Assembly: GCF_044324875.1 (NCBI RefSeq)
Contig: NZ_CP172187.1
Source of the DNA: Escherichia coli
GTDB lineage: Bacteria > Pseudomonadota > Gammaproteobacteria > Enterobacterales > Enterobacteriaceae
DNA: 64,000 nt
Direction: 5' to 3' (one strand)
Part shown: positions 1 through 58,425 of the stretch, in pieces
Layout of the letters: each line of letters opens with the position of its first letter
Position numbering within the stretch: the first letter of the stretch is position 1
Position numbers and translations under genes: made by a program
Notes under the pieces: model-generated
Seen by the model: only the letters and a program-made list of their open reading frames with translations
Told to the model about the DNA's origin: nothing
Database searches by the model: none

Positions 1-549
1 TCCAGCACCGTGCATTTTTCCGGTAATAATCACGGCACCATCCCCGATTGCCTCGCGAATATCTCTCGCTGCCAGCCCCAGAGCGCAATTGCTGACCCCG
101 TTATTAGGATTACCTGTTAGCACCAGAATTTTTGCGCCCATATTAACTAGCTTACGGGCATTGTTAGCCGTTGCTGCCCGCCCTGATTTCATTTTCCAGA
201 TATCGTCATGAGCAACAGCAAATTCAGGGTCTACGGCCTCCAGGTTCACACCAATGATACGGCCTGTCAGGCGTTGCAGTTCATGCAACGTTTGTTCTGG
301 TGCAATACCTGCGGGTAATCCCTGAATATACGGATTTTCACTGTCAAACATATTAACCAGTAAAATATCTGCGCCCTGTGATGCAGCAAGTTCGGCATTC
401 GTGACATTGTTCAGTAATGGCTGGGTAATCGCGATGGATTCGCTAACCATCACACGGCCTTCACTGGCACGAATAGCGTACAGAAGCCTGGTTTTATCCA
501 TCGATACAAAATCGGAAGCACAGCAGTCCAGCAGCCGTTTATTGGTCAT
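1..549 (-). CDS. hypothetical protein, partial (3' end beyond window edge); start ATG overlaps the stop of the upstream PTS gene
   Basis: Open minus-strand frame from ATG (complement of 547-549; MTNKRLLDCC...) running off the window; ATGA start/stop overlap with the PTS gene; family not recognised. Confidence 0.5.
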   Translation of the reverse strand, partial: MTNKRLLDCCASDFVSMDKTRLLYAIRASEGRVMVSESIAITQPLLNNVTNAELAASQGADILLVNMFDSENPYIQGLPAGIAPEQTLHELQRLTGRIIGVNLEAVDPEFAVAHDDIWKMKSGRAATANNARKLVNMGAKILVLTGNPNNGVSNCALGLAARDIREAIGDGAVIITGKMHGAG

Positions 550-1943
550 TGAGCGCCTCCTTGCTGATTAACCAGTTCACTGATTTCACCCGCGATAATT
601 TCTGCCCGGGTTCCTACAATGACCTGTAGCCCGGTATCTCCGCGTTTTACAACGCCCATGGCTCCGAGTTTCCTGAGTTCTGGCTCTTGAATCATGTCCA
701 TGTTTGCGACCTCCAGGCGCAGACGGGTAATACAGGCATCAATACGCATAATGTTTTCTTTCCCACCCAAAGCGGCAAGATACGCCGTTGCTAAATCGGA
801 GGAACCGGCAATAGCTGAAATGGTTTCCTCATTATCTTCTCTTCCTGGCGTAGCGAGATTAAAGCGACTAATAAAAAAGCGGAACAGGAAGTAATAAATC
901 AGTGCCCATAAGCCCCCAATAGGTAGCATTAATAACGGATGTGAGGCCAGTCCGAATGACAGTACATAATCAATTAACCCAGCCGAGAACGTAAATCCAA
1001 GTTTAATCCCAAGAATTTGACACACAGCCATAGAAACGCCAGTCAGTACCGCGTGGATACCGTAGAGCACAGGCGACAAAAACAAGAAGGTGTATTCCAC
1101 GGGTTCCGTAATCCCCGTCAGGAATGTCGTCAGCGCGAGTGACAGGAATAACCCGGCGACAGCGGGGCGTTTATCTTTCGGGGCTGCGTGATACATCGCG
1201 AGGCATGCAGCAGGCAGAGCAAACATAAATACCGGGAAATATCCCGCCATAAATGCCCCGGCAGAGGGATCACCGGCAAAGAATCGGTGGATATCACCGG
1301 TCACCACGGTACCATCCGCCGCCGTAAAGGAACCGAAAACAAACCAGACCAGCGAGTTAACAATATGGTGCAAACCCACGACGCGAAAAAGAACGTTCAG
1401 TATACCGTACACAAAGGGGCCAACCGGGCCAGACGCTACCAGCCAGTTACCAATTGCATTCACGCCATGCTGTACCGGTGTCCATGCCCAGCCAAGAATA
1501 ACACCCAGCAGCAGGCAACTTAACCCAGTGGCTATTGGGACAAAACGTTTTCCACCGAAAAAAGCCAGATATTCCGGTAACTTGATATTATGATAGCGAT
1601 TATACAGCACGCCCGCCAACAACCCAGTCAGAATGCCAGACAGGACCCCCATATTAAGTTCAGGATTGATAGCCTGCATCACAGAAGTCAGTACCAGGTA
1701 ACCAATCGTACCTGCCAGGCTGGCGGCACAGTGATTGTCCTTTGCAACCCCCCCACTGATACCTATGGCAAACAGTAGTGGTAAGTTTTCAAACAGTGTT
1801 TGCCCTGCTTTCATTACAAACACAATATTGAAAACATCGGGCTGCCCAAGACGTAGCAGCAACCCGGCGACGGGTAATACAGCAATAGGTAGCATCAGTG
1901 CCTTGCCCAGGCGCTGCATGATGACGAAAAAATTCCCCTGCAT
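546..1943 (-). CDS. PTS system glucose-family EIICB component (sugar unknown)
   Basis: 465 aa ORF; N-terminal multi-TM EIIC resembling PtsG/NagE; C-terminal EIIB with DACITRLR cysteine motif. Confidence 0.85.
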   Translation of the reverse strand: MQGNFFVIMQRLGKALMLPIAVLPVAGLLLRLGQPDVFNIVFVMKAGQTLFENLPLLFAIGISGGVAKDNHCAASLAGTIGYLVLTSVMQAINPELNMGVLSGILTGLLAGVLYNRYHNIKLPEYLAFFGGKRFVPIATGLSCLLLGVILGWAWTPVQHGVNAIGNWLVASGPVGPFVYGILNVLFRVVGLHHIVNSLVWFVFGSFTAADGTVVTGDIHRFFAGDPSAGAFMAGYFPVFMFALPAACLAMYHAAPKDKRPAVAGLFLSLALTTFLTGITEPVEYTFLFLSPVLYGIHAVLTGVSMAVCQILGIKLGFTFSAGLIDYVLSFGLASHPLLMLPIGGLWALIYYFLFRFFISRFNLATPGREDNEETISAIAGSSDLATAYLAALGGKENIMRIDACITRLRLEVANMDMIQEPELRKLGAMGVVKRGDTGLQVIVGTRAEIIAGEISELVNQQGGAQ

Positions 1944-2176
1944 AAATTCACCTCAGTAGTCGTTGTTCATTTTGCGCATGAGACAGTAAACCATCTATGT
2001 ACCATTTGTAGACCATAATGTTTTATGGCTAAAAAGACCTACTGATAGATAGCTGTTTTGTGATCTAACGAGCTTTATTTTTCTTCTGTGAGTGATTTCC
2101 AGGATGACAATGGACGCTCACTGGTTAAGAATTGGTATACAGAGATTGAACCAGATATAACCTGCTAAGAGGAACG

Positions 2177-2926
2177 ATGAAAAAAACTCCGCAACCCGAA
2201 TTTCATCTTGATGAATCCAGCGCGATGCCGCTGTATATGCAACTGGTTAATGCCATTAAGTTAGCCGTAGCGGAAGGTCGACTGCATCCTGGTGACGTTT
2301 TGCCGTCAGAACGGACACTGGTAGAGACGTTGAACATTGCGCGAGGCACAGCCCGTAAAGCATTGCAGCAACTGCTGGAAGAGGGCGTTCTCGTGCGTAA
2401 TCAGGGTTCTGGTACATTCGTTGCTCCACATGTACTTCAATCTCTGCCGTTATTGGAAAGTTTCAGTGAAATGGCCGTTGCCAGTGGTGGAGAAGCACAA
2501 AGCGAACTGGTCGGGTATCAGCGTCGGGCATCTGCGCCGGAAGAGCGTCGTGCCCTGCAACTGACAGATGGTAAAGATGAGGTTGTGGAGCTAACCCGAC
2601 TGCGGAAGATTAACGGTATTGCCGTTTCCCTTCAGACAGCGATTTTACCTGCGGCTCTGCTGGATAAAATCAGTGAACTGGATGAGTCGTTGTACCTGCA
2701 TCTGGAGAAGAAAGGCGCTCCAGTGCTGCGGGCGAGTCAGAGCTTCCGCGCAGTGCCAGTGGACAATAAACTGGCACACTATCTGAACATCGGGGAGCAT
2801 GAACCACTCCTGTTGGTAACCCGCACAGGCTTCACTCACGAAGATAAGCCGGTGGAATACACCCGGACATGGTGCCTGAATGATTACTATGATTTTACGA
2901 TTGAGCTACATCGAAAAGAATCATAA
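2177..2926 (+). CDS. GntR/HutC-family transcriptional regulator (HTH plus UTRA-like effector domain)
   Basis: 249 aa; N-terminal GntR-type HTH (SERTLVETLNIARGTARKALQQL); divergent from the PTS operon. Confidence 0.8.
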   Translation: MKKTPQPEFHLDESSAMPLYMQLVNAIKLAVAEGRLHPGDVLPSERTLVETLNIARGTARKALQQLLEEGVLVRNQGSGTFVAPHVLQSLPLLESFSEMAVASGGEAQSELVGYQRRASAPEERRALQLTDGKDEVVELTRLRKINGIAVSLQTAILPAALLDKISELDESLYLHLEKKGAPVLRASQSFRAVPVDNKLAHYLNIGEHEPLLLVTRTGFTHEDKPVEYTRTWCLNDYYDFTIELHRKES

Positions 2927-3376: not shown

Positions 3377-3406
3377 TCAACATAGGTCATCCTAAAATAC
3401 ATTAAA

Positions 3407-3487
3407 GATAACAAGATAACAAGATAACAAGATAACAAGATAACAAGATAACAAGGTGTTATCTTGTTATCTCAAGGTGTTATCTTT
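3407..3487. repeat. iteron array: six direct copies of GATAACAA followed by three inverted copies (TGTTATC)
   Basis: Read directly at 3407-3454 (direct) and 3455-3487 (inverted); immediately downstream of the parG-like gene. Confidence 0.85.
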
Positions 3488-3782
3488 GTTTTACTTCTGC
3501 TATCAATCGTGATACCTCTGTTTTTGATAGTGTTTTAAGTGCTTCTACCGCCGCCCTGACAACATCAGAACGATTCACTCTGCCTTTACCTGAAACCATC
3601 TCAGCCGTTATAAGGGCATCAATGTCTTTTAGGTTTTCTTCAAAAAAAGAAATACTCACTGGTTTTGCTTTGCTTACAACCGATGATTTATCTGATGACT
3701 TTTTGGTATTATCAAGGCCAGCCGTGCCACCGTTAATAAATGCTGCCTCGTCACGAGGTGAAGTGTTTGCTCTATTTCTCAC
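3480..3782 (-). CDS. ParG-like ribbon-helix-helix centromere-binding partition protein
   Basis: 100 aa with flexible basic N-tail and RHH-like C-terminus; 4-bp overlap with the upstream ParA-family gene, typical of type Ib par operons. Confidence 0.6.
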   Translation of the reverse strand: MRNRANTSPRDEAAFINGGTAGLDNTKKSSDKSSVVSKAKPVSISFFEENLKDIDALITAEMVSGKGRVNRSDVVRAAVEALKTLSKTEVSRLIAEVKQR

Positions 3783-4405
3783 AGAATAACCTCTTTCACT
3801 AACGCTTCGATTTCTTGCTGGGCTTTATCATTTTGCGTTTCAAAAATTGTCATTGATTCGGCCCAAGCATCTCGATGTGCTTTACGATCACATACCCGGG
3901 AGTTTGCCAGATGCATTTCAGGGTAATCCTTAAGTACTTCAGCTGCCTCATTGGCTTCATTAACAAACATATTTGTGGGCGTCATGTTTAAAACGAGATA
4001 TCCCCGAACATCCTCATTAAAATCTTTTGCTGCTGTAAAAACGGAGCATGTATGAGGCACAACATCCAGGTCCATCTGAGATGGGCGCAAAGGAGAAATG
4101 AATACATCTGCGGCCATCAATCCACTACGCATTTCTGCGCTATCACGGCCAGCACAGTCTGCAATAACAAAATCATAGGATTTTTCGTGTTCCTTTAACA
4201 TGGCTTTGATGTTACCTGTCGCGCCTGTAACCGGAATATGAGGGAGATCTTCAGGGCGATTGTTGTACCAGGTTAATACTGATTTCTGGTCATCTGCGTC
4301 GACAATAATCACTCTATTGCCTAGTGACATCAGATACGCAGCTATAGATACCGCCAGTGTACTTTTACCTACCCCACCCTTTTGACTACCTAATACTATT
4401 ATCAT
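3779..4405 (-). CDS. parA: ParA/ParF-family partition ATPase (small, type Ib)
   Basis: 208 aa; deviant Walker A KGGVGKST at N-terminus; GAGG RBS upstream of ATG. Confidence 0.85.
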   Translation of the reverse strand: MIIVLGSQKGGVGKSTLAVSIAAYLMSLGNRVIIVDADDQKSVLTWYNNRPEDLPHIPVTGATGNIKAMLKEHEKSYDFVIADCAGRDSAEMRSGLMAADVFISPLRPSQMDLDVVPHTCSVFTAAKDFNEDVRGYLVLNMTPTNMFVNEANEAAEVLKDYPEMHLANSRVCDRKAHRDAWAESMTIFETQNDKAQQEIEALVKEVIL

Positions 4406-4600: not shown

Positions 4601-5872
4601 TCATAACTGGGCTACTGGCAAATCTGTCCATCTGGTGGTATACGCAGGAGAAAGCATTTCCCGTTTCATTTGCCATTCAGGGGCGGTTCCTCGCCCCGCA
4701 AACCACACTTTCCCTTTTCCAGACTGGTTCAGTTCATCGAGTGTTTTCATTAACTTTTCGCTGTTTTTACGGGGCTGGATCTCATCAAATAATCCCGGCT
4801 GCGCTATACCCGATGGTGTGAAATCAGCCAGCATGACTCCTGCCTTCATATAGCGGTACCCTTCACGCCAGACATGGTTTAAGGCTCTGCATGCGGCGGC
4901 AATAATGTCCCGGCTGTCCTGTGTGGGCAATGGAAGCTTTTCCACAGCGGCATTGCTGTAACAGGGTTCTTTTACTGCAAAGGGGGATGTCCGTACAAAT
5001 GTCGTCACCTGCCGGCAATACTGACGTTCCCCACGTAGTTTCTCTGCGGCCCGCTCTGCATACTGAACAACAGCCTGGTGCATGGCATCTTTGTCTGTGA
5101 TTCGTTCACCAAAACTGCGACTACAGACAATCTGCTGTTTTGCCGGTGGTGCTTCTTCCAGGGATATGCAGGACTCGCCGTTGAGTTCGCGTACCGTACG
5201 CTCAAGAATGACGCTGAAGTTTTTCCGGATGAATGCCGTGTTAGCCTGCGCCAGCTGCAGTGCTGTGTTAATACCCAGCGCATTCAGCTTTTCCGTCAGT
5301 CTGCGTCCTACTCCCCAGACCTCACCAACTGGCTGCAGCCCCAGTAGCTTCAAGGTCCGATTACGGTTTTCTGCCGTCAGCGCGACCACTCCGGAAAACT
5401 GTGGCCATTGCTTTGTTGCCCACTGTGCACTTTTAGCCAGCGTTTTTGTAGGCGCAATGCCCACCCCCATGGTGAGTCCTGTCCAGCTCTTTACCTGTTC
5501 CCTGAGCTGATGACCAAAAACCTCCGGAGAGATGCAATGATTTATCCCCCGCAAATCAATGAACATTTCATCAATTGAGTAGGGCTCAACTGCGGGAGAA
5601 AGCGACTCCAGAACAGCCATAACCCGTTGGCTCATGCTGTGGTACAGCGCATAATTGCTGGAAAATACATGTATTTTCTTCTCCAGGCGCATTTGTCTCA
5701 CCTGAAACCAGGGCTGCCCCATTCTGATGCCAAGGGCTTTTGCCTCCGGGCTGCGCGCGATCACACAGCCATCGTTATTGCTGAGTACGATGACCGGTTC
5801 GTTGCGAAGGTCCGGGCGGAAAACTTTTTCACATGAGGCGTAGAAACTGTTGATATCAGCCAGTGCAAACAT
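4601..5872 (-). CDS. impB: Y-family error-prone DNA polymerase subunit (UmuC/MucB/ImpB family)
   Basis: 423 aa starting MFALADINSFYASCEKVFRPDL, the conserved UmuC-family N-terminus; gene order small-DinI-like/UmuD-like/UmuC-like matches impCAB (symbol by synteny, from memory). Confidence 0.85.
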   Translation of the reverse strand: MFALADINSFYASCEKVFRPDLRNEPVIVLSNNDGCVIARSPEAKALGIRMGQPWFQVRQMRLEKKIHVFSSNYALYHSMSQRVMAVLESLSPAVEPYSIDEMFIDLRGINHCISPEVFGHQLREQVKSWTGLTMGVGIAPTKTLAKSAQWATKQWPQFSGVVALTAENRNRTLKLLGLQPVGEVWGVGRRLTEKLNALGINTALQLAQANTAFIRKNFSVILERTVRELNGESCISLEEAPPAKQQIVCSRSFGERITDKDAMHQAVVQYAERAAEKLRGERQYCRQVTTFVRTSPFAVKEPCYSNAAVEKLPLPTQDSRDIIAAACRALNHVWREGYRYMKAGVMLADFTPSGIAQPGLFDEIQPRKNSEKLMKTLDELNQSGKGKVWFAGRGTAPEWQMKREMLSPAYTTRWTDLPVAQL

Positions 5873-14717: not shown

Positions 14718-15281
14718 ATGCACAGTCAGTTAAGAGAACGTATCCGGCTGATGCGCGCAAGGCTGGATAACGCCGCGCCGGTTGCTGAAATCCGGGCTGA
14801 ATCTCAGCTTTTTGTGACTCCTGCCCCGGTCTGTGATCGCCTGGTGACGCTGGCGGAAATCAGCAACCGTGATCACATTCTGGAACCCTCTGCCGGCACC
14901 GGGGCCATACTGCTGGCGATTCGGGATACCGCGCCGGAGGCCATGTGTGATGCGGTGGAGATTAACAGCGGGCTGGTCCGGTATCTGCGGGAAAATTTTA
15001 ACGGTGTCAGGGTACAGTGTGGCGACTTCATGGAATGGCAGCCGGTGCAGTATTACAGCCGGATCATTATGAATCCGCCGTTCAGTCACGGGCAGGATAT
15101 CCGGCATATCCTGCGGGCTTTTTCCCTGTTGCGTCCGGGGGGCGTTCTGGTTGCCGTCTGTCTCAACGGGCCGCGCCAGCAGGAGAAGCTGTTACCGTTT
15201 TCTGACGTCCGCGAGGAGCTGCCGCGCGGCACGTTTGCTTATACCGATGTCCCGACGATGATTATTCGTTTGCGTGCCTGA
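14718..15281 (+). CDS. small SAM-dependent methyltransferase-like protein (motif I EPSAGTGAI, motif IV NPPF), no obvious target-recognition domain
   Basis: 187 aa; N6-adenine MTase-type motifs read in the ORF; GGAGA RBS. Confidence 0.7.
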   Translation: MHSQLRERIRLMRARLDNAAPVAEIRAESQLFVTPAPVCDRLVTLAEISNRDHILEPSAGTGAILLAIRDTAPEAMCDAVEINSGLVRYLRENFNGVRVQCGDFMEWQPVQYYSRIIMNPPFSHGQDIRHILRAFSLLRPGGVLVAVCLNGPRQQEKLLPFSDVREELPRGTFAYTDVPTMIIRLRA

Positions 15282-15460: not shown

Positions 15461-15525
15461 CTGCTACTGCTACTGCTACTGCTACTGCTACTGCTACTGC
15501 TACTGCTACTGCTACTGCTACTGCT
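15461..15525. repeat. hexanucleotide tandem repeat (CTGCTA)n, ~11 copies
   Basis: Read directly; absent at the equivalent position of repeat copies B1 and B3. Confidence 0.9.
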
Positions 15526-16187: not shown

Positions 16188-19100
16188 ATGGCAGTTCGTG
16201 GCATTAACAAGGTCATTCTTGTCGGTGTGCGCCGTTGAAGCGCGGTGTTTTATGGAGTGTTGCCTGAAAAGCAACATGGCTTAGTGGTATAGCCATTGCA
16301 TACTGTGGTTAGCCTTGCTTGGTAACAGGCTCGGAGATCCTGAAAAGGAGAGGTGAACATAGCATCCACAGAAAAGGGTGGTGAATATGGAAATCGTTAT
16401 AAGTATCACCATTCAATGCAAGATGTATATGGATAAACTGGGTTTGTTGAAGTCGAGATCTATGTGGGAAACAGGAAACCAATAACGCAGAACGATTGAA
16501 GCGTTATTCCCGTACTAGCACAAGAAATCCGTCCGACGTTGATTGTGACCACTCTAACGGGCCAGCTATTGATGAAATAGTTAAACGATCGAAAGACATC
16601 CTAAGTACATCGCATCTCCACACCGTGAAACTACGGGACTACCTAAACTGGATTTATACCCAGCATGGTAGCGGAGTCTCCATAGTACTCAAGGTCGGCC
16701 TGTAATGGGTTCCGGCAGTCCGCATTATACGGAAGCAGCAAAGGTATAAATCAACCGGAAGGAAGATGAAAGCCTCACAGTGCTGCGGGGAAGGGAGACA
16801 GTTGTTAGATACATCAATCTCTAAGAGGAGGGTTAGCCAATGCTGCCTGATGAACTTGAGAAAAGATTAGATGGAATTGAGGATGCTTCAAAAAAAGGGT
16901 ATCCAGTACGTAATCTATACAAAATTGCGTGTGAGCCCGGACTGTGGCTGCAAGCCTACGTGAATATACGGGCCAATGCAGGTGCACTGACTCAAGGTGT
17001 ATCAACAGATACCATTGATGGCTTTTCTATCGAAAGAGCAGAGAAGCTGGCAAAAACATTGCGGAGTAGAGAATACGTAGCGAAACCTGTACGCAGAGTT
17101 CAGATCCCAAAAAAGGACGGAAAAACCAGACCGCTGGGGATTCCAGGTGGAGACGATAAACTGGCGCAAGAAGTAGCAAGAATTATTCTGGAAAGGGTTT
17201 ATGAACCAGTATTCTCTGAACACTCTCATGGATTCAGACCAAAACGTTCGTGTGAAACTGCGCTCAGATCTATTCGTCCAGTCTGGAACGGAGTTAAATG
17301 GATCGTGGATGTTGATATCAAAGGTTTCTTTGACAATATCCCCCACAAACTATTGCTGAATACACTGGCAGAGAAAATTAAGGATAAGAATTTCCTGAAA
17401 TTAATCGAACAGTGGCTGAAGGCAGGATATGTGGACAATTGGAAATACCATCGCTCATATTCTGGCACGCCACAAGGTGGGATAATTTCTCCCTTACTGG
17501 CAAATATATACCTCGACAAACTGGACCGTTTTGTAGAACAGAATTTAATTCCTGCATATACAAGCGGTACAAAACGAAGAGCGAATCCAGATATGAACAG
17601 GCTGGCCCATAAGATTCATAAACTACGAAAGAAAGTAGACGGTATGGCAACTGATTCTGAATCAGAAAAAGAAGCCATAAAGAAAGAAATTGAACGACTG
17701 CTTGAAGAAAAACGTTCTATACCATCTCAGGTCATGAACGATCCAAACTTCAGGCGTATGTACTATGTTCGATATGCTGATGACTTCGTAATCGGTGTCA
17801 TCGGCTCGAAGAAAGATGCTGAACATATATCAAGACAGGTCAGAAACTTTATTACTACTTCACTGGGATTGGAAGTTAATGAAGCAAAGACCAGGATCCG
17901 CCATATCTCAGAAGGAGTTAATTTTTTAGGCTATGAAATCAGACAGGCAGATGCAAAGAAATTGCTGAAGCAGAAAATGCAAGGGCGGCACGCTCTCCGG
18001 AGATCCACCACAGGAATTGTGCAGCTCTTCGTTCCTGACAATATAGCCGCTAAATTTTGTCACCAAAAGAAATATGGCTGTTATGAGAATGTGAAGGCTG
18101 TACATCGTTCAAGTCTACAAAATCTCAGTGAAGCTGAAATTGTTCTGACTTTCAACGCGGAAATGCGCGGATTGGCGAACTACTACAGTCTGGCGCTGGA
18201 CATGAAATATAAATTATCAAAATTATATTTCATATGGCAAATAAGCCTTTTTAAGACCCTGGCGAATAAACGACGTAGTTCAGTGAATAAAGTCGCCAAA
18301 TCGCTACGGCAAAATAATGGAGATCTGGCTATTACCGTTCAGGCCAAAAATGGATCCCGAAAGATTGAGGTTTTCAAACTCAAACATGTCAATCGCAACC
18401 GAACAACGATTGTCGATACGGAACCGAGAACCGCACATATCACAACCCGCACAACAGAGATCATGCGTCGATTAGGGGCAAGGATCTGCGAGTATTGTGC
18501 GAAGACTGGGCGCTGCGAAGTACATCATGTCAGAAAGCTAAAAGACCTGAAGAAAGGTCGTAAGGCCGGATATAAACCCAGCTTGTGGCAACTAATGATG
18601 ATCGCACGCCGCCGGAAAACGATGATTTTGTGCGCAAGTTGCCACGACAAGTTACATAGCGGAAAACTACCCGATTTGAGACAGGAAAAGGGAAGAATAC
18701 TCCTGCAACCACCTGTCTCAAGCGGGGATTCTGCTAAATGAGTTTATCCCCAATAAGCTAGCAATGGAGAGCCGTATGCACTGAAAGGTGCACGTACGGT
18801 TCGGAGGGGGGGTAACGGTGATCTAACTCAAGATAAGCAGGACATATTCGCCATTTATCTTGAAAGACCACACGTACCCTACCCTACCGTCTGGGAAAAG
18901 ATCCGGAAGTCCGTTACATCCCAAACGGGGGCGCAGTGGCAAACCTGCAGGTGGCCACGTCAGAAAGCTGGCGCGACAAACAGACGGGGGAGATACGGGA
19001 GCAGACAGAATGGCATCGCGTGGTGCTGTTCGGCAAGCTCGCGGAAGTGGCTGGTGAGTATCTGCGCAAGGGCGCGCAGGTCTACATCGAAGGTCAGCTT

Positions 19101-31740: not shown

Positions 31741-32314
31741 TATGTCACTCCGTCAGATATGCCATGCCACCCGGTATGTTGTTGTCCGGGGCCTGTGTTG
31801 GTTGTTCTGGTGTCTGAAATACGCCGTCATTCTGCCACTGGCCACAATGGCCCTGATGGCTCTGTTTGTTTTATGGAAGGACAACACCACACCGGGAAAA
31901 TTACTGGTTCAGGAAATTGACTTCGTAAGACAAACAGCCCCTGCCGGGCAGTTTCCTGTAAGAGAATGTTTGCCTTCTCTGCATGATCTTCCAGGAGCAG
32001 AAGAGAAAATCTGCCGTTACCGTGCTGCTGATGCTGCAGATTATGTCAGGGAGACTGACCGGTCACTGATGCAACTGGTCACCGCATTCTGGGCAACGCT
32101 GGCACTTATGTATATGTCGTTTGCGGCAGGCACCGGGAAATATCCGGTGCGACCCGGAAAAATGAAATGTGTCCGTGTGGCAACAGCAGATGAGCGTCTG
32201 AAGGAAGTTCTTGCAGAAGACACTTCCCTGCCGGGAAAAATCAGGGAATGCCATGTTTATTTCCCTGATGACAGAACAATCAGAAACAACGGAGATAAAA
32301 ATGAACATGCGTAA
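31730..32314 (+). CDS. traP: TraP
   Basis: 194 aa; synteny. Confidence 0.75.
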   Translation: MANNMSLRQICHATRYVVVRGLCWLFWCLKYAVILPLATMALMALFVLWKDNTTPGKLLVQEIDFVRQTAPAGQFPVRECLPSLHDLPGAEEKICRYRAADAADYVRETDRSLMQLVTAFWATLALMYMSFAAGTGKYPVRPGKMKCVRVATADERLKEVLAEDTSLPGKIRECHVYFPDDRTIRNNGDKNEHA

Positions 32315-32621
32315 TATTAATGTTATTACTGCCCGCTCTGTACCGGATAAAAGCGTATCAGATGATTTTATGCATGCTGTTCTCAGTAACTGCACCACAA
32401 GAATCGTACTTCCTGCACCGAAGGAATTCAGTTCTGAATCATTGCCGCACAATTTTAATATGGCTGCTGTCGGTGTGATGAAGAAGGGTATGTCGATGAG
32501 CTTATTTTCTTCTCCGGGGCATATTGTGGTTGCCGGACAATCCGGTGGCGGAAAATCTGTTCCGGTGAAAGAACTAATCGACAGAATTATTCAGAAATAT
32601 AAGGAACCCTTCGATGAATAA
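32301..32621 (+). CDS. trbD: TrbD-like (larger than F TrbD)
   Basis: Start at ATG after GGAGA RBS; position. Confidence 0.6.
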   Translation: MNMRNINVITARSVPDKSVSDDFMHAVLSNCTTRIVLPAPKEFSSESLPHNFNMAAVGVMKKGMSMSLFSSPGHIVVAGQSGGGKSVPVKELIDRIIQKYKEPFDE

Positions 32622-52794: not shown

Positions 52795-53509
52795 ATGACA
52801 TCAGACAATATCGCTGAATATGTTGGTGAGAATAATCAATTTACTGAGAAGCCTGTAACTGAATACCCCCCGGTGATACAGGATAATACAGTGACCACTA
52901 AAGACTATCTGTACAGCAATAATATTGATACTGACCTTTTAGTGGTTATCGGAGGGCTTATTGTTATATTGTTTCTCATGATGCTTATCATGTACTTTAT
53001 TAATTCTCTCAGGCATAAGGAATTAACTGAAATACTGACAAAAATATCTTTTCCTGAAAAATCCGGGAGCAATTCGCTTAAACCGGAAGCGGTCAGCTGT
53101 AATTTGTTGTCCCTGTGTGTGCTGGCACCGGTATTCTGTACACCCAAAAAGCTGGCTGAAGTTTCCAGGGAGATCATCGTGGCGAGTGCGCAGGAGATTG
53201 CATGGACGCCGGGGAGCAGTCGTATTGATGGTCATCAGGGCGAAAATATTACCTGGTCTCTGTCGTCACAGTCTCATGCCGATAAATACGAGCTCATCAA
53301 TAAAACGTCCCGTGTTTCTCCTGACAGTGGCCGTTTTTATGAACCGGACACAGTTCTGGATCACCGTGAACGGGTACGCCTTTTTATTCAGATCCAGTTT
53401 CCGCATGGGAGTGACTGGTCTGAAGTATTGCGCCTGACTGACATTGTTGCAGAGAAGGTCTCTTCCGGCAGGACTGCAGGTGCGTATTCCGCTCTATTCG
53501 ATCACGGAT
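52795..53509 (+). pseudogene. unknown membrane-anchored protein gene truncated at its 3' end by IS insertion
   Basis: ORF 52729-53583 reads through into IS terminal sequence; one TM segment; AT-rich start. Confidence 0.5.
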
Positions 53510-53579
53510 TGGCATCGAAGTCCGATCAGCGATTCGCATCCATTCGATCAACCGGGAACTTAACTTTTTCTACCGCTTT

Positions 53580-54335
53580 TTAACGCGTTTTTTCGCTGCT
53601 TTCCACTACCGGGGGATTTTTCCTCAGTGACTCTCCCTGAAGGACCACTCGGTGTGAGTTATGTACCAGTCTGTCCAGGATGGCATCTGCTGTTGTTGGG
53701 TTCTCCATCAGACCATGCCATTTATCTACCGGGAACTGGCTTACCACTATCGTGCTGCTTTGTCCGTAACGATCCTCTATGAGCTCCAGAAGGTCATTAC
53801 ACTGGGCGTTACTTAACTGTTCCAGCCCCAGATCGTCCAGGATTAGAACCTGTATTTTTTGCAACTGTTTCAGATATTTCAGCCAGCTGCCATCAACACG
53901 TCCCTGAGCCAGTTGTTCCAGTAATCGCCCGGTTCTACAGTACCGGACGCTGTGTTTCTGTCGACATGCCTGTTCGCCCAGCGCATTGGCTATCCAGCTC
54001 TTGCCACATCCTGTCGGACCGGTTATCAGCAGGTTTTTCCTGTGGGTTATGTAGTGGCCGTTCAGCAGTTCTCTCATCTGTTCAGCCCGCAGACCTCTTG
54101 AGGCCGGATAGCGCAGCCCTTCCGGTGTTGCCTGGTATTTCAGGCCGGCATTTTTTCTCAACCGTGCCACACGGCTGTTTTCCCTGCTCAGAAGCTCGTC
54201 ATCAACCAGCAGCGTCAGCCTTTCCTCGAACGACAGTTCGTCGTAGGTCTGAGGCGTTTCCCGCTGCCGTATCAGGCTCCCGGCCATCGCCGGGAGTTTC
54301 AGTTGGGTCAGTTTGTTTAACAGGTTATCACTCAT
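53580..54335 (-). CDS. istB: IstB helper ATPase
   Basis: 251 aa from MSDNLLNKLTQLKLPAMAG; Walker A GPTGCGKS. Confidence 0.9.
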   Translation of the reverse strand: MSDNLLNKLTQLKLPAMAGSLIRQRETPQTYDELSFEERLTLLVDDELLSRENSRVARLRKNAGLKYQATPEGLRYPASRGLRAEQMRELLNGHYITHRKNLLITGPTGCGKSWIANALGEQACRQKHSVRYCRTGRLLEQLAQGRVDGSWLKYLKQLQKIQVLILDDLGLEQLSNAQCNDLLELIEDRYGQSSTIVVSQFPVDKWHGLMENPTTADAILDRLVHNSHRVVLQGESLRKNPPVVESSEKTR

Positions 54336-54351
54336 ACTGTTGTTCCTTCTG

Positions 54352-55887
54352 TCAGTGGTAGTAGCCCGGACCACGCAGGTTTTCATGCTCTGAAGCATAT
54401 GCCGGATGTTGTTCGCCCTGGCGGGATAATGGAAGCTCCAGGTTCTCCCGATGGTGACGCAGCAGATTGTCGATAAAGCGTCTGTCAGGGGCGTTATAGT
54501 GCAGGGCAACGTAACAGGCCTTTTCCAGCCGTTCCGGGCCGTATTTTTTCTGAAGTGCCAGCAGCCCCAGAACTGCACGATAAGCCAGTTCCGGATGGGG
54601 TTTTGCCTTCAGCATGGATTCAACCACCCGGCCTGTGGACGGGCCCGTACGTTTTCCCTGCTCGATCAGGCGTTCCGGTGTCCATGTCCCGTGCTGCCGG
54701 TGGCGCTCTGGCATGTGAAGCGGATTGGTTGTGTGTTTATATTCATGTGTGCTGCGCGGATGTTGCGCCACACACTGCCCCTTGTGCCAGAGCTGTACCA
54801 CCGACTGCCCCGCCTTCAGTGACAGACGCTGACCGACCAGTTCGTGTGGAACGGAGTACCAGTGACGGGCATATTCAACGTGGTAGTCAGGGCCAACCTT
54901 CACAGCTTTGTATTCCGTGTATTCATAAGGTGCCAGAGGCAGCGGAGAGAGTGCTGGCGCATCCAGTATGCGGAAGCGTTCTGCACGGGTTTGATTGCCG
55001 TACCCCTTCATTGGCCGGTTATTCATGTCTGTCAGTAACTCCCTAAGGCGCGCATTCAGCGCCCTGAGCGTGTGGAAGGTTTCATTACGGATGCGGGCAA
55101 GAAGCCATCGTTCAACGATGAGGACGCCGTTTTCTGCTTTTGGTTTATCTTTAGGTTTGCGTGGTCGGGCCGGGATGATAACCGTGCCATAGTGCTCAGC
55201 CAGTGCCTGATAACTGTCGTTGATGACAGGCTCATATCGATCGGCCTTTTTCACTGCGCTTCTGAGGTTATCGGGGATGAGCAGCTTCGGTACGCCGCCC
55301 AGGAAGGTCAGGCAACGGCTGTGGGCATTTAACCATGACATCATGTCCTGACCTTCGCACGCTTCAACGTAGGTATAGTTGGACGCCCCCATTACGGCCA
55401 CGAAGATTGCCACGCGGCGTATCTCACCGGTGTCCGGATTAATAACAGGAACCGTAGGACCACAGAAGTCGATAAAAAGCTTTTCGCCGGCACGATGCTC
55501 CTGGCGCATGGAGAGACGTCGCGTTTTTTTCCACTCCCGGTAGCAACGGCAGAAGTGCGAGTATCCCATCGCTTTGTTACCCGCCTGTGCCTTGTATTCC
55601 ATCCACAACAGTTGCCGCGTCACACCTGGTTTTCTCATTTCCGTATCGAAGTACAACATGTCAGGCATTACAAGCTCTGATGCAAAGGTGTCTTTGGGCG
55701 GAAAAATGAGTTTCTCCAGCGTGTCATGGGATATATCAGCAGGTAATGGCCATGACAGAGAAGAGGCTTTGAAGCGGGCAAGAACCTCAAAAACGGTTGA
55801 GGCGCTGATGTGTAACGTCAGTCCGATACAACGGTTAGTCAGCTTCTTGTCGAACTTGAGCTGAAGGATCTTAAAACAGGTTTCCAT
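54352..55887 (-). CDS. istA: IstA transposase (DDE)
   Basis: 511 aa from METCFKILQLKF...; AGGAG RBS. Confidence 0.85.
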   Translation of the reverse strand: METCFKILQLKFDKKLTNRCIGLTLHISASTVFEVLARFKASSLSWPLPADISHDTLEKLIFPPKDTFASELVMPDMLYFDTEMRKPGVTRQLLWMEYKAQAGNKAMGYSHFCRCYREWKKTRRLSMRQEHRAGEKLFIDFCGPTVPVINPDTGEIRRVAIFVAVMGASNYTYVEACEGQDMMSWLNAHSRCLTFLGGVPKLLIPDNLRSAVKKADRYEPVINDSYQALAEHYGTVIIPARPRKPKDKPKAENGVLIVERWLLARIRNETFHTLRALNARLRELLTDMNNRPMKGYGNQTRAERFRILDAPALSPLPLAPYEYTEYKAVKVGPDYHVEYARHWYSVPHELVGQRLSLKAGQSVVQLWHKGQCVAQHPRSTHEYKHTTNPLHMPERHRQHGTWTPERLIEQGKRTGPSTGRVVESMLKAKPHPELAYRAVLGLLALQKKYGPERLEKACYVALHYNAPDRRFIDNLLRHHRENLELPLSRQGEQHPAYASEHENLRGPGYYH

Positions 55888-56226
55888 AGTGCTCCTGGAT
55901 TTTCTCTTTCTGGACATTGACGTCTCCACTGGTTTAAACACGGCAATGGAGACTGTGGTGAAAAGAGTTAATTCCCGGAGTGACTGGCAGGATGCCAATC
56001 AATGATCGGAAGCATGCCAAATCGTGATCGATTGTGATGCCAAACTGTGATCGGAGATGGATGCCAAATCATGATCGATTCGAATGCCAAACTGCGATCG
56101 ATTCAGATGCCATTTTGCAGCAGGCGGGTATCACCACCGGCATACAGGGTACACCTGGTCTGTTTCTGTGAATTAACCCCACATCATCCTTTTCTGCCCT
56201 GTTCCAGATTTTCCCGGAGTTTCATC

Positions 56227-58425
56227 ATGAGTTTTAACGCAAAGGATATGACCCAGGGCGGTCAGATTGCGTCCATGCGTATCCGCATGTTCAGCCAGAT
56301 CGCCAATATCATGCTTTACTGCCTGTTTATTTTTTTCTGGATACTCGTTGGTCTGGTTTTATGGGTAAAAATAAGCTGGCAGACGTTTGTGAACGGCTGT
56401 ATTTACTGGTGGTGTACCACGCTGGAAGGCATGCGGGATTTAATCAAGTCCCAGCCAGTATATGAGATTCAGTATTACGGCAAAACCTTCCGGATGAACG
56501 CTGCCCAGGTACTGCATGATAAATATATGATCTGGTGCGGTGAGCAGCTATGGTCCGCATTCGTTCTGGCGTCTGTCGTGGCCCTGGTTATTTGCCTGAT
56601 CACCTTCTTTGTTGTCTCCTGGATTCTGGGGCGTCAGGGTAAACAACAGAGCGAAAATGAAGTCACAGGTGGTCGTCAGCTGACAGACAATCCGAAAGAC
56701 GTTGCCCGGATGCTGAAAAAAGACGGCAAGGACTCCGATATCCGGATTGGCGACCTGCCGATTATCCGGGATTCCGAAATCCAGAACTTCTGTCTGCACG
56801 GCACGGTCGGGGCCGGTAAGTCGGAGGTTATCCGTCGTCTGGCCAACTACGCCCGTCAGCGCGGTGATATGGTGGTGATTTATGACCGTTCAGGGGAATT
56901 TGTTAAAAGTTACTATGATCCCTCCATCGATAAAATCCTGAATCCGCTGGATGCCCGCTGTGCCGCATGGGATTTGTGGAAGGAGTGCCTGACACAGCCG
57001 GATTTTGATAATACCGCAAATACTCTGATCCCTATGGGTACAAAAGAGGACCCGTTCTGGCAGGGTTCAGGACGTACCATTTTTGCGGAAGCGGCGTACC
57101 TGATGCGTAATGACCCCAACCGCAGCTACAGCAAACTGGTGGACACACTGCTTTCCATCAAAATTGAAAAACTGCGTACCTTCCTGCGTAATTCACCGGC
57201 AGCCAACCTGGTGGAAGAGAAAATTGAGAAAACGGCGATTTCCATCCGTGCTGTGCTGACCAACTACGTGAAAGCCATCCGTTACCTGCAGGGGATTGAG
57301 CATAACGGTGAGTCTTTTACCATCCGTGACTGGATGCGTGGTGTCCGGGAAGATCAGAAAAACGGCTGGCTGTTTATCTCGTCGAATGCCGACACCCATG
57401 CCTCCCTGAAGCCGGTGATCTCCATGTGGCTGTCCATTGCCATTCGTGGTCTGCTGGCAATGGGAGAAAACCGTAACCGTCGTGTGTGGTTTTTCTGTGA
57501 CGAGTTACCCACGTTACACAAACTGCCGGACCTGGTGGAGATCCTGCCGGAAGCCCGTAAGTTCGGAGGCTGTTATGTGTTTGGTATCCAGTCCTATGCC
57601 CAGCTGGAAGATATCTACGGTGAGAAAGCGGCGGCCACGCTGTTTGACGTCATGAACACCCGTGCTTTTTTCCGTTCCCCGAGCCATAAGATTGCAGAGT
57701 TCGCTGCCGGTGAGATTGGTGAGAAAGAGCACCTGAAAGCCAGCGAGCAGTATTCCTACGGTGCTGACCCGGTACGTGACGGGGTATCGACCGGTAAGGA
57801 TATGGAGCGTCAGACACTGGTCAGTTATTCCGACATTCAGTCTCTGCCGGATCTGACCTGCTATGTCACTCTGCCCGGACCGTATCCGGCAGTAAAACTC
57901 TCCCTGAAATATCAGGCACGACCGAAGGTCGCTCCGGAGTTTATTCCGCGTGACATCAACCCGGAAATGGAGAACCGTCTGAGTGCCGTACTTGCTGCAA
58001 GGGAAGCAGAAGGTCGCCAGATGGCCAGCCTCTTCGAACCGGAGGTTGCCTCCGGAGAAGGCGTGACTCAGGCTGAACAGCCACAACAGCCACAACAGCC
58101 ACAACAGCCACAACAGCCACAACAGCCACAACAGCCACAACAGCCAGTGTCTTCTGTCATGAATGATAAGAAGTCAGATGCAGGTGTGAGTGTTCCGGCA
58201 GGGGGGATCGAGCAGGAGCTGAAAATGAAACCGGAAGAAGAGATGGAACAGCAACTGCCACCCGGGATCAGTGAATCCGGTGAAGTGGTGGATATGGCCG
58301 CTTATGAGGCATGGCAACAGGAAAATCATCCGGACATCCAGCAGCAGATGCAGCGTCGTGAAGAGGTGAACATTAATGTGCACCGGGAGCGCGGGGAGGA
58401 TGTTGAGCCGGGAGATGATTTCTGA
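56227..58425 (+). CDS. traD: TraD coupling protein (T4CP)
   Basis: 732 aa from [13 protein letters not shown]...; Walker A GTVGAGKS; C-terminal QPQ repeats. Confidence 0.9.
58078..58146 (+). repeat. in-frame 9-bp tandem repeat (CAGCCACAA)x~7.7 encoding (QPQ)n in TraD C-terminus
   Basis: Read directly. Confidence 0.9.

Follow-up and report, generated by a model that had tools for sequence, protein, structure and literature searches.

Gln/Pro repeats in TraD and the host gene of this array

In-frame VNTRs in bacterial proteins and contingency loci, the phase-variable simple sequence repeats, are known repeat classes. In F-like TraD proteins, a variable region of the C-terminal extension has been described as the "QQP motif", with the tract QPQQP in F and 23 residues in R1, and was drawn apart from the TraM interaction domain (Lang et al. 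2011, Mol Microbiol 82:1071, PMC3245843). [quoted passage not shown]

The array analyzed here lies in a 64-kb window (the whole stretch of DNA under analysis, 64,000 nucleotides long) and matches these descriptions: an in-frame 9-bp QPQ unit, located in the C-terminal extension of TraD upstream of the TraM domain, and variable in copy number. With the QQP motif it shares the protein, the Gln/Pro repeat, and a location flanked by the NTP-binding and TraM interaction domains, and nothing substantive differs; its tract of 23 residues equals the value given for R1 (Lang 2011). With the Salmonella repeat it shares the 9-bp unit, the tripeptide, and the variability, whereas host and plasmid backbone differ, and the Salmonella counts parallel the 10.67 to 15.67 units that we found on identical E. 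coli traD-traI alleles. As both have been published (PMC3245843, PMC7311658), the feature and its variability are already known. The likeness to contingency loci goes part of the way. Like them, the array is a pure tandem repeat whose copy number changes far faster than point mutations accumulate, most plausibly through slippage, and by sequence comparison it is a hypermutable tandem repeat. In contrast to them, it offers no ON/OFF switching of expression by frameshift, since a 9-bp unit inside a coding sequence is a multiple of 3; it resides in a plasmid conjugation gene rather than in a surface antigen, and no phenotype is linked to its repeat number. To this prior knowledge our analysis adds five lengths on zero-SNP backgrounds of 7.4 kb, a range of 1.67 to 40.67 units, and a non-repetitive linker in distant TraD proteins. 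The features of the locus, all on the plus strand, are as follows.

56227..58425, +: traD, F-type type IV coupling protein, 732 aa plus stop (PRK13700, TIGR02759, Pfam domains, TrwB alignment)
57946..58422, +: TraD C-terminal extension, residues 574-732, missing from TrwB, whose homology stops at 573
58033..58254, +: predicted disordered linker holding the array, residues 603-676 (AlphaFold2 pLDDT <50)
58078..58146, +: 9-bp tandem array, 7 x CAGCCACAA + CAGCCA, encoding (QPQ)7QP, TraD residues 618-640
58309..58422, +: last 38 residues (695-732), putative equivalent of the TraM-binding domain, positioned from the literature
58399..58422, +: last 8 residues (725-732), ...EPGDDF, putative equivalent of the TraM-contacting peptide, positioned from the literature
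58425..63695, +: traI relaxase/helicase, 1756 aa (TrwC relaxase domain, E = 1.7e-80), start codon overlapping the traD stop

The host gene has the features of an F-type TraD: its product exceeds the family cut-offs of NCBIfam PRK13700 (1681 bits, cut-off 1221) and TIGR02759 (834.6 bits, cut-off 521), combines an N-terminal membrane domain with a TrwB-like nucleotide-binding domain (Pfam TraD_N at residues 32-128 and TrwB_AAD_bind at 172-561), ends in an acidic tail, and is followed by traI. The Walker A residues G192, G197, K198, and S199 are invariant across an alignment of 27 TraD sequences. An ISSso4-like insertion is found 107 bp upstream of traD. The tra region of the window is collinear with R100 and AP026457, and of the classical references F and R100 the latter is the closer, its TraD differing from that of the window by 8 substitutions outside the array. 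TrwB of R388 (1e9r/1gl6) aligns to TraD residues 161-573 only, and a PDB search with TraD, covering entries of at least 20 residues, returned no solved homolog other than TrwB. As TrwB homology ends at residue 573, residues 574-732 constitute an F-family-specific extension; the TraD C-terminal extension has been described as unstructured and about 150-200 residues long (Lang 2011, PMC3245843; Kishida 2024).

A pure in-frame array of variable copy number

Read directly from the window, positions 58078..58146 consist of CAGCCACAA seven times, followed by CAGCCA, with every unit perfect. Tandem Repeats Finder delimited nearly the same interval (58076-58146; period 9, 7.9 copies, 100% matches, 0 indels), and translation places the array in frame with the 732-codon traD open reading frame, yielding (QPQ)7QP, 23 residues at positions 618-640. 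Three lines of evidence (direct reading, Tandem Repeats Finder, and translation) thus bear out the description in an earlier note on this DNA of an in-frame 9-bp repeat coding for (QPQ)n in the C-terminal extension of TraD, and the perfection it attributed to the CAGCCACAA units extends to all seven full copies. When period-9 self-matches were scored as runs of consecutive bases matching the base 9 positions upstream, the run in the array reached 62 bases; elsewhere in the 64-kb window no run exceeded 8 bases, and the longest runs in 50 shuffles were 6-11 bases, which excludes a chance origin.

Related sequences were plentiful: a 526-nt query around the repeat matched 3,978 PLSDB plasmids, and a 241-nt query matched 2,736 of 5,426 complete E. 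coli genomes. Among the matches listed, the span minus the query length was an exact multiple of 9 in 56 of 57, 57 of 59, and 33 of 33 cases (146 of 149), and the related plasmids carried from 1.67 to 40.67 units overall, with the window at 7.67 units against 9.67 in R100. The counts were distributed as follows.

F plasmid: 1.67 units, tract QPQQP
R100: 9.67 units
Four PLSDB plasmids, sequences read: 2.67, 4.67, 19.67, and 40.67 units
Complete metagenome arrays (n = 108): 2 to 16.67 units
10.67 units: 17 plasmids, span-derived
11.67 units: 11 plasmids, span-derived
12.67 units: 10 plasmids, span-derived
13.67 units: 4 plasmids, span-derived
15.67 units: 2 plasmids, span-derived

The span-derived counts from 10.67 to 15.67 come from 44 listed matches that share one score (13127 bits) and one identity value; five of these matches were verified as identical outside the array. 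For divergent F-type alleles, such counts are uncertain by about 1 unit, because a separate 9-bp indel lies just upstream (EPDVPEVVSGED versus EPEVASGEG). The longest array (40.67 units, 366 bp) is composed of 35 CAGCCACAA units, 5 CAGCCGCAA units, and a final CAGCCG. In metagenomes, 12 of 120 arrays were broken by contig ends; in the 108 complete arrays, CAGCCACAA accounted for 567 of 603 full units, and copy number peaked at 3.67 and 6.67 units, peaks that may be due to dominant lineages or to preferred lengths.

Variation on identical backgrounds was observed directly. Five plasmids, of which four belong to a single Japanese series and the fifth comes from a US ST131 isolate, have 0 mismatches outside the array over flanks of 1,851 bp on the left and 5,549 bp on the right (~7.4 kb, all of traD and traI), and yet carry 10.67, 11.67, 12.67, 13.67, and 15.67 units. 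AP026457, the nearest relative of the window among the matches listed, shows 6 mismatches over the ~7.4 kb of flanks, and its array has 4.67 units versus 7.67 in the window. Five lengths on zero-mismatch backgrounds, together with the difference from AP026457, indicate that the array turns over much faster than substitutions accumulate in its flanks, and the comparison of flank-identical plasmids suggests that it is hypermutable. The earlier note had expected copy number to vary and proposed comparing it across F-like plasmids; that comparison confirms the expectation, with numbers that clearly are not fixed, spanning 1.67 to 40.67 units and including five lengths on identical flanks.

The linker and its distance from the TraM contact

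An AlphaFold2 model of moderate quality (mean pLDDT 63 from a 27-sequence alignment, with most of the core at residues 21-470 near or above 70) shows pLDDT below 50 over residues 603-676, where low pLDDT is a mere proxy for disorder. Blocks of 10 residues average 21-30 over 611-670, the segment has no secondary structure, and helices at 579-603 and 690-710 flank it. The repeat would therefore sit midway in a predicted disordered linker, in agreement with the published description of the CTD as unstructured. A QPQ tract occupies the same position in TraD homologs at least 75% identical to that of the window, from E. coli and Salmonella, in an Atlantibacter protein, and in several metagenome proteins. 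In more distant TraD proteins (Klebsiella, Serratia, Edwardsiella, Xenorhabdus, and others) its place is taken by a non-repetitive, non-conserved segment rich in P/A/S/T, bounded by the same conserved anchors, LFEP... and GGxEQEL, and 31-93 aa long among the distant non-QPQ proteins of the 18 of 27 homologs that were parsed by anchor patterns. Linkers of the Klebsiella/Serratia/Edwardsiella type thus share with the QPQ array its position, its disordered character, and its varying length, but unlike it they have no tandem repetition at the DNA level, and therefore no hypermutability is expected of them. Judged by these homologs, the conserved element is a putative flexible spacer, loosely constrained in length and composition, rather than the repeat.

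The contact with TraM lies farther downstream. In F TraD it comprises Asp710-Phe717, the final 8 residues, within a conserved Ala680-Phe717 (PMC7555446), and the final 38 residues of R1 TraD are cited as necessary and sufficient for TraM binding (Beranek 2004, via PMC3245843 and PMC7555446). Exchange of the terminal 8-15 residues switches specificity between F and pED208 (Wong 2011; Kishida 2024). The terminal 15 residues, the C15 motif, have a 10^4-5-fold effect on cognate transfer, and by published truncations the rest of the unstructured CTD, including the QPQ region, has an effect of ~10-30-fold (10^1-1.5); the CTD without C15 contributes ~10^3-fold to the transfer of a non-cognate substrate (Kishida 2024). 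The tail of the TraD in the window is acidic, with a terminal aromatic residue and glycine, and so appears to fit the published description of a TraM-docking tail (acidic, terminal aromatic, glycine; review PMC7555446). Its last 74 residues equal those of F TraD exactly, despite tracts of 23 residues in the window and 5 residues (QPQQP) in F.

Measured against these definitions, the array ends at residue 640, 55 residues upstream of the 38-residue domain and 85 upstream of the 8-residue peptide, and residues 618-640 fall outside the 8-, 15-, and 38-residue definitions of the TraM contact alike. The earlier note had located the units in the region of TraD that contacts TraM, which holds loosely, in that they belong to the C-terminal extension, but fails for the contact itself (618-640 versus 695-732 and 725-732). 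Specificity resides in the terminal 8-15 residues and probably not in the repeat, which is uncoupled from the TraM-binding sequence.

Explanations for the length variation

We consider it likely that the array represents a minisatellite, hypermutable and always in frame, within a disordered tether that tolerates changes in length, and that its length differences are mostly neutral or weakly modulatory. Whole QPQ triplets would be gained or lost as strands slip at replication or, alternatively, as copies of the plasmid undergo unequal exchange; because every unit is an identical 9-mer, a whole-unit change never breaks the frame, and each such change would make a Gln/Pro-rich flexible tether 3 residues longer or shorter. 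At one end of this tether would be the hexameric body of the ATPase, which finishes close to residue 573, and at the other the acidic, conserved peptide of the C-terminus, which would dock on TraM tetramers bound at oriT. Such an entropic tether could give all six tails of a TraD hexamer access to the TraM tetramers on oriT; an avidity model with a flexible TraD tail has been put forward (Wong 2011). The purity of the units (567 of 603) would be the expected product of ongoing slippage turnover. Tract lengths from 5 to 122 residues occur in plasmids that MOB-suite predicts to be conjugative, and because the tether tolerates this range, most length variation would be neutral or weakly modulatory; near-neutrality is thus proposed from length tolerance, with the conjugative ability of long- and short-array plasmids as predicted by MOB-suite. 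It is possible that a length effect falls within the margin of the CTD that does not depend on C15 (~10-30-fold for cognate and ~10^3-fold for non-cognate transfer). Our literature search found no paper testing the effect of TraD repeat length.

The strongest rival to this minisatellite reading takes up the suggestion of the earlier note that copy number could tune the specificity or efficiency of transfer, and holds that repeat length sets conjugation efficiency or substrate specificity through the engagement of TraM and the relaxosome by TraD, for example through the reach or avidity of its six tails. The placement of the repeat speaks for it: with the ATPase body on one side and the TraM-binding tail on the other, repeat length sets the reach of the tether, so that a tract of 5 aa would span ~1.6-1.8 nm, one of 23 aa 7-8 nm, and one of 122 aa, if extended, as much as ~40 nm. 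Under the avidity model, TraM tetramers on DNA must be within reach of several flexible tails (Wong 2011), the contribution of the CTD without C15 (10-30-fold cognate, ~10^3-fold non-cognate; Kishida 2024) leaves room for such an effect, and heterogeneity of the TraD tail has been raised as a possible source of plasmid-specific differences (Lang 2011, PMC3245843). However, specificity has been mapped to the last 8-15 residues, whose exchange switches it, F and the window share those identical last 74 residues with tracts of 5 and 23 residues, and length varies 25-fold among plasmids typed conjugative. Distant TraD proteins have no repeat at that position at all, and on one clonal allele the lengths scatter without converging visibly. 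We therefore regard a tuning role as unlikely overall; an effect of length on specificity is unlikely, and a modest effect on efficiency is possible.

A reading in which the variation is itself adaptive treats the QPQ array as a plasmid-borne in-frame contingency locus, whose slippage variants would be under fluctuating selection. Here, for example, cognate relaxosome docking would be traded off against promiscuous mobilization of other plasmids and against susceptibility to male-specific RNA phages. We find this decidedly improbable. A narrower form, to which we give still less credence, holds that the array is an in-frame contingency locus whose length diversifies under selection by male-specific RNA phages (R17/MS2) that need TraD for RNA entry. 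R17 infection via R1 needs TraD and the relaxosome and via F does not, with heterogeneity of the TraD tail suggested as a cause; the QQP length difference between them (23 residues in R1, 5 in F) has been noted, and phage resistance has been proposed as a driver of T4CP diversification (Lang 2011, PMC3245843); the locus also mutates rapidly. The proposal is, however, speculation in Lang 2011 itself, and F and R1 differ in many other ways. An in-frame length change in a disordered linker would be a weak means of blocking entry, and metagenomes show the variation just as clinical plasmids do.

That the array acts as nucleic acid, either as an RNA structure or regulatory element for traD or traI expression or as part of an antisense gene, is extremely improbable. 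The traI gene starts 279 nt downstream of the array, and two antisense open reading frames (57514..58140 and 57956..58138, both on the minus strand) cross it, but the RNA fold has a z-score of 0.12 with the array unpaired in the centroid, every homolog preserves the traD frame, and the units have a length divisible by 3. An Rfam search of the array region matched no family, its sole match, to snoR30, being a chance hit of 22 bits where the gathering score is 60. The RNA-structure role was rejected on the z-score, the unpaired centroid, and the Rfam result, and the antisense frames were rejected as genes, their (WLL)n and (AVV)n translations being by-products of the repeat. Finally, assembly or sequencing artefacts, for which one could cite the 12 of 120 metagenome contigs ending within the array, where short-read assemblers struggle, and the 366-bp array of 40.67 units that exceeds an Illumina read, are excluded for practical purposes because 146 of 149 differences among the matches listed are exact multiples of 9, the differences are present in complete RefSeq genomes and plasmids, the Sanger-era references also differ (F 1.67 versus R100 9.67), an independent hybrid-sequencing study agrees (PMC7311658), and most arrays, at less than 150 bp, fit inside a single read.

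Taken as the in-frame minisatellite that we favor, the array is an already described polymorphism, probably near-neutral, of a conjugation protein that has been studied extensively. Contigs recurrently break at it, it makes assemblies differ in traD length, and it is often the sole difference over 7.4 kb of otherwise identical traD-traI, for instance among plasmids of which one is from ST131, so that it could serve as a fast-evolving marker in fine-scale plasmid tracking. Should it prove true that its length modulates transfer or phage susceptibility, the array would offer a simple, heritable means of adjusting how resistance plasmids spread.

The insertion upstream of traD and the traD-traI junction

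The tra region of the window carries a mobile element ahead of traD:
53481..56119: IS21-family (ISSso4-like) element of 2,639 bp, with istA and istB on the minus strand

A 5-bp target duplication (GCAGG) lies on both sides of the element, at 53476-53480 and 56120-56124, and the traD start codon follows 107 bp downstream of the insertion. The element sits in the 3' end of an ORF that is found between traT and traD in both R100 and AP026457, the nearest relative of the window, and many E. coli plasmids hold copies of it that are 100% identical. Tandem repeats reported by TRF at 55990-56112, with periods of 23 and 47, appear to be the terminal repeats of the element. The insertion probably interrupts transcription of the tra operon into traD and traI. 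At the far end of traD (58425) the traI start codon overlaps the traD stop codon with nothing between them, as in R100 and unlike the F plasmid (NC_002483), in which a vapBC-like toxin-antitoxin pair is annotated between the two genes on the opposite strand (31967..32592).

Integrity of traD and its database entries

Two open reading frames run antisense through the QPQ array:
57514..58140 (-): antisense ORF
57956..58138 (-): antisense ORF

Neither is a gene; both arise artefactually when the complementary strand of the repeat is read. In two plasmids, CP042640 and NZ_CP100504, the span difference (record span minus query length) is not a multiple of 3 (-14 and -10 bp, respectively) and traD is without annotation, and for these reasons traD in both is probably a frameshifted pseudogene. 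Contig ends fall inside the array in 12 of 120 metagenome contigs (including L022, L026, and L035). Chimeric or over-long 'TraD' entries are numerous in the protein database (e.g., P0004-P0009), suggesting that errors of assembly or gene calling may be frequent among the entries for traD.

Cargo and other repeat arrays

Elsewhere, the window holds the following features:
within 546..2926: PTS EIIC/EIIB transporter gene (-) and GntR/UTRA regulator gene (+)
3405..3455: perfect 8-bp array, AAGATAAC x6.4
3779..4405 (-): ParA/MipZ-like ATPase gene, 208 aa
4533..4579: perfect 8-bp array, ATAACAAG x5.9
4601..5872 (-): impB/umuC-type Y-family polymerase gene
14718..15281: small methyltransferase-like ORF
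15461..15525: perfect 6-bp array, CTGCTA x10.8
16840..18741: 633-aa ORF with reverse transcriptase, group II intron maturase, and HNH domains

The PTS and GntR/UTRA genes are metabolic cargo in a segment that is otherwise F-like plasmid, and the domain content of the 633-aa ORF indicates that a group II intron has inserted into the plasmid. The CTGCTA array, downstream of the methyltransferase-like ORF, may be another slippage-prone repeat. The two 8-bp arrays share one unit, ATAACAAG being a rotation of AAGATAAC, and stand on either side of the ParA/MipZ-like gene, beside the polymerase gene; they may represent partition centromere-like sites.
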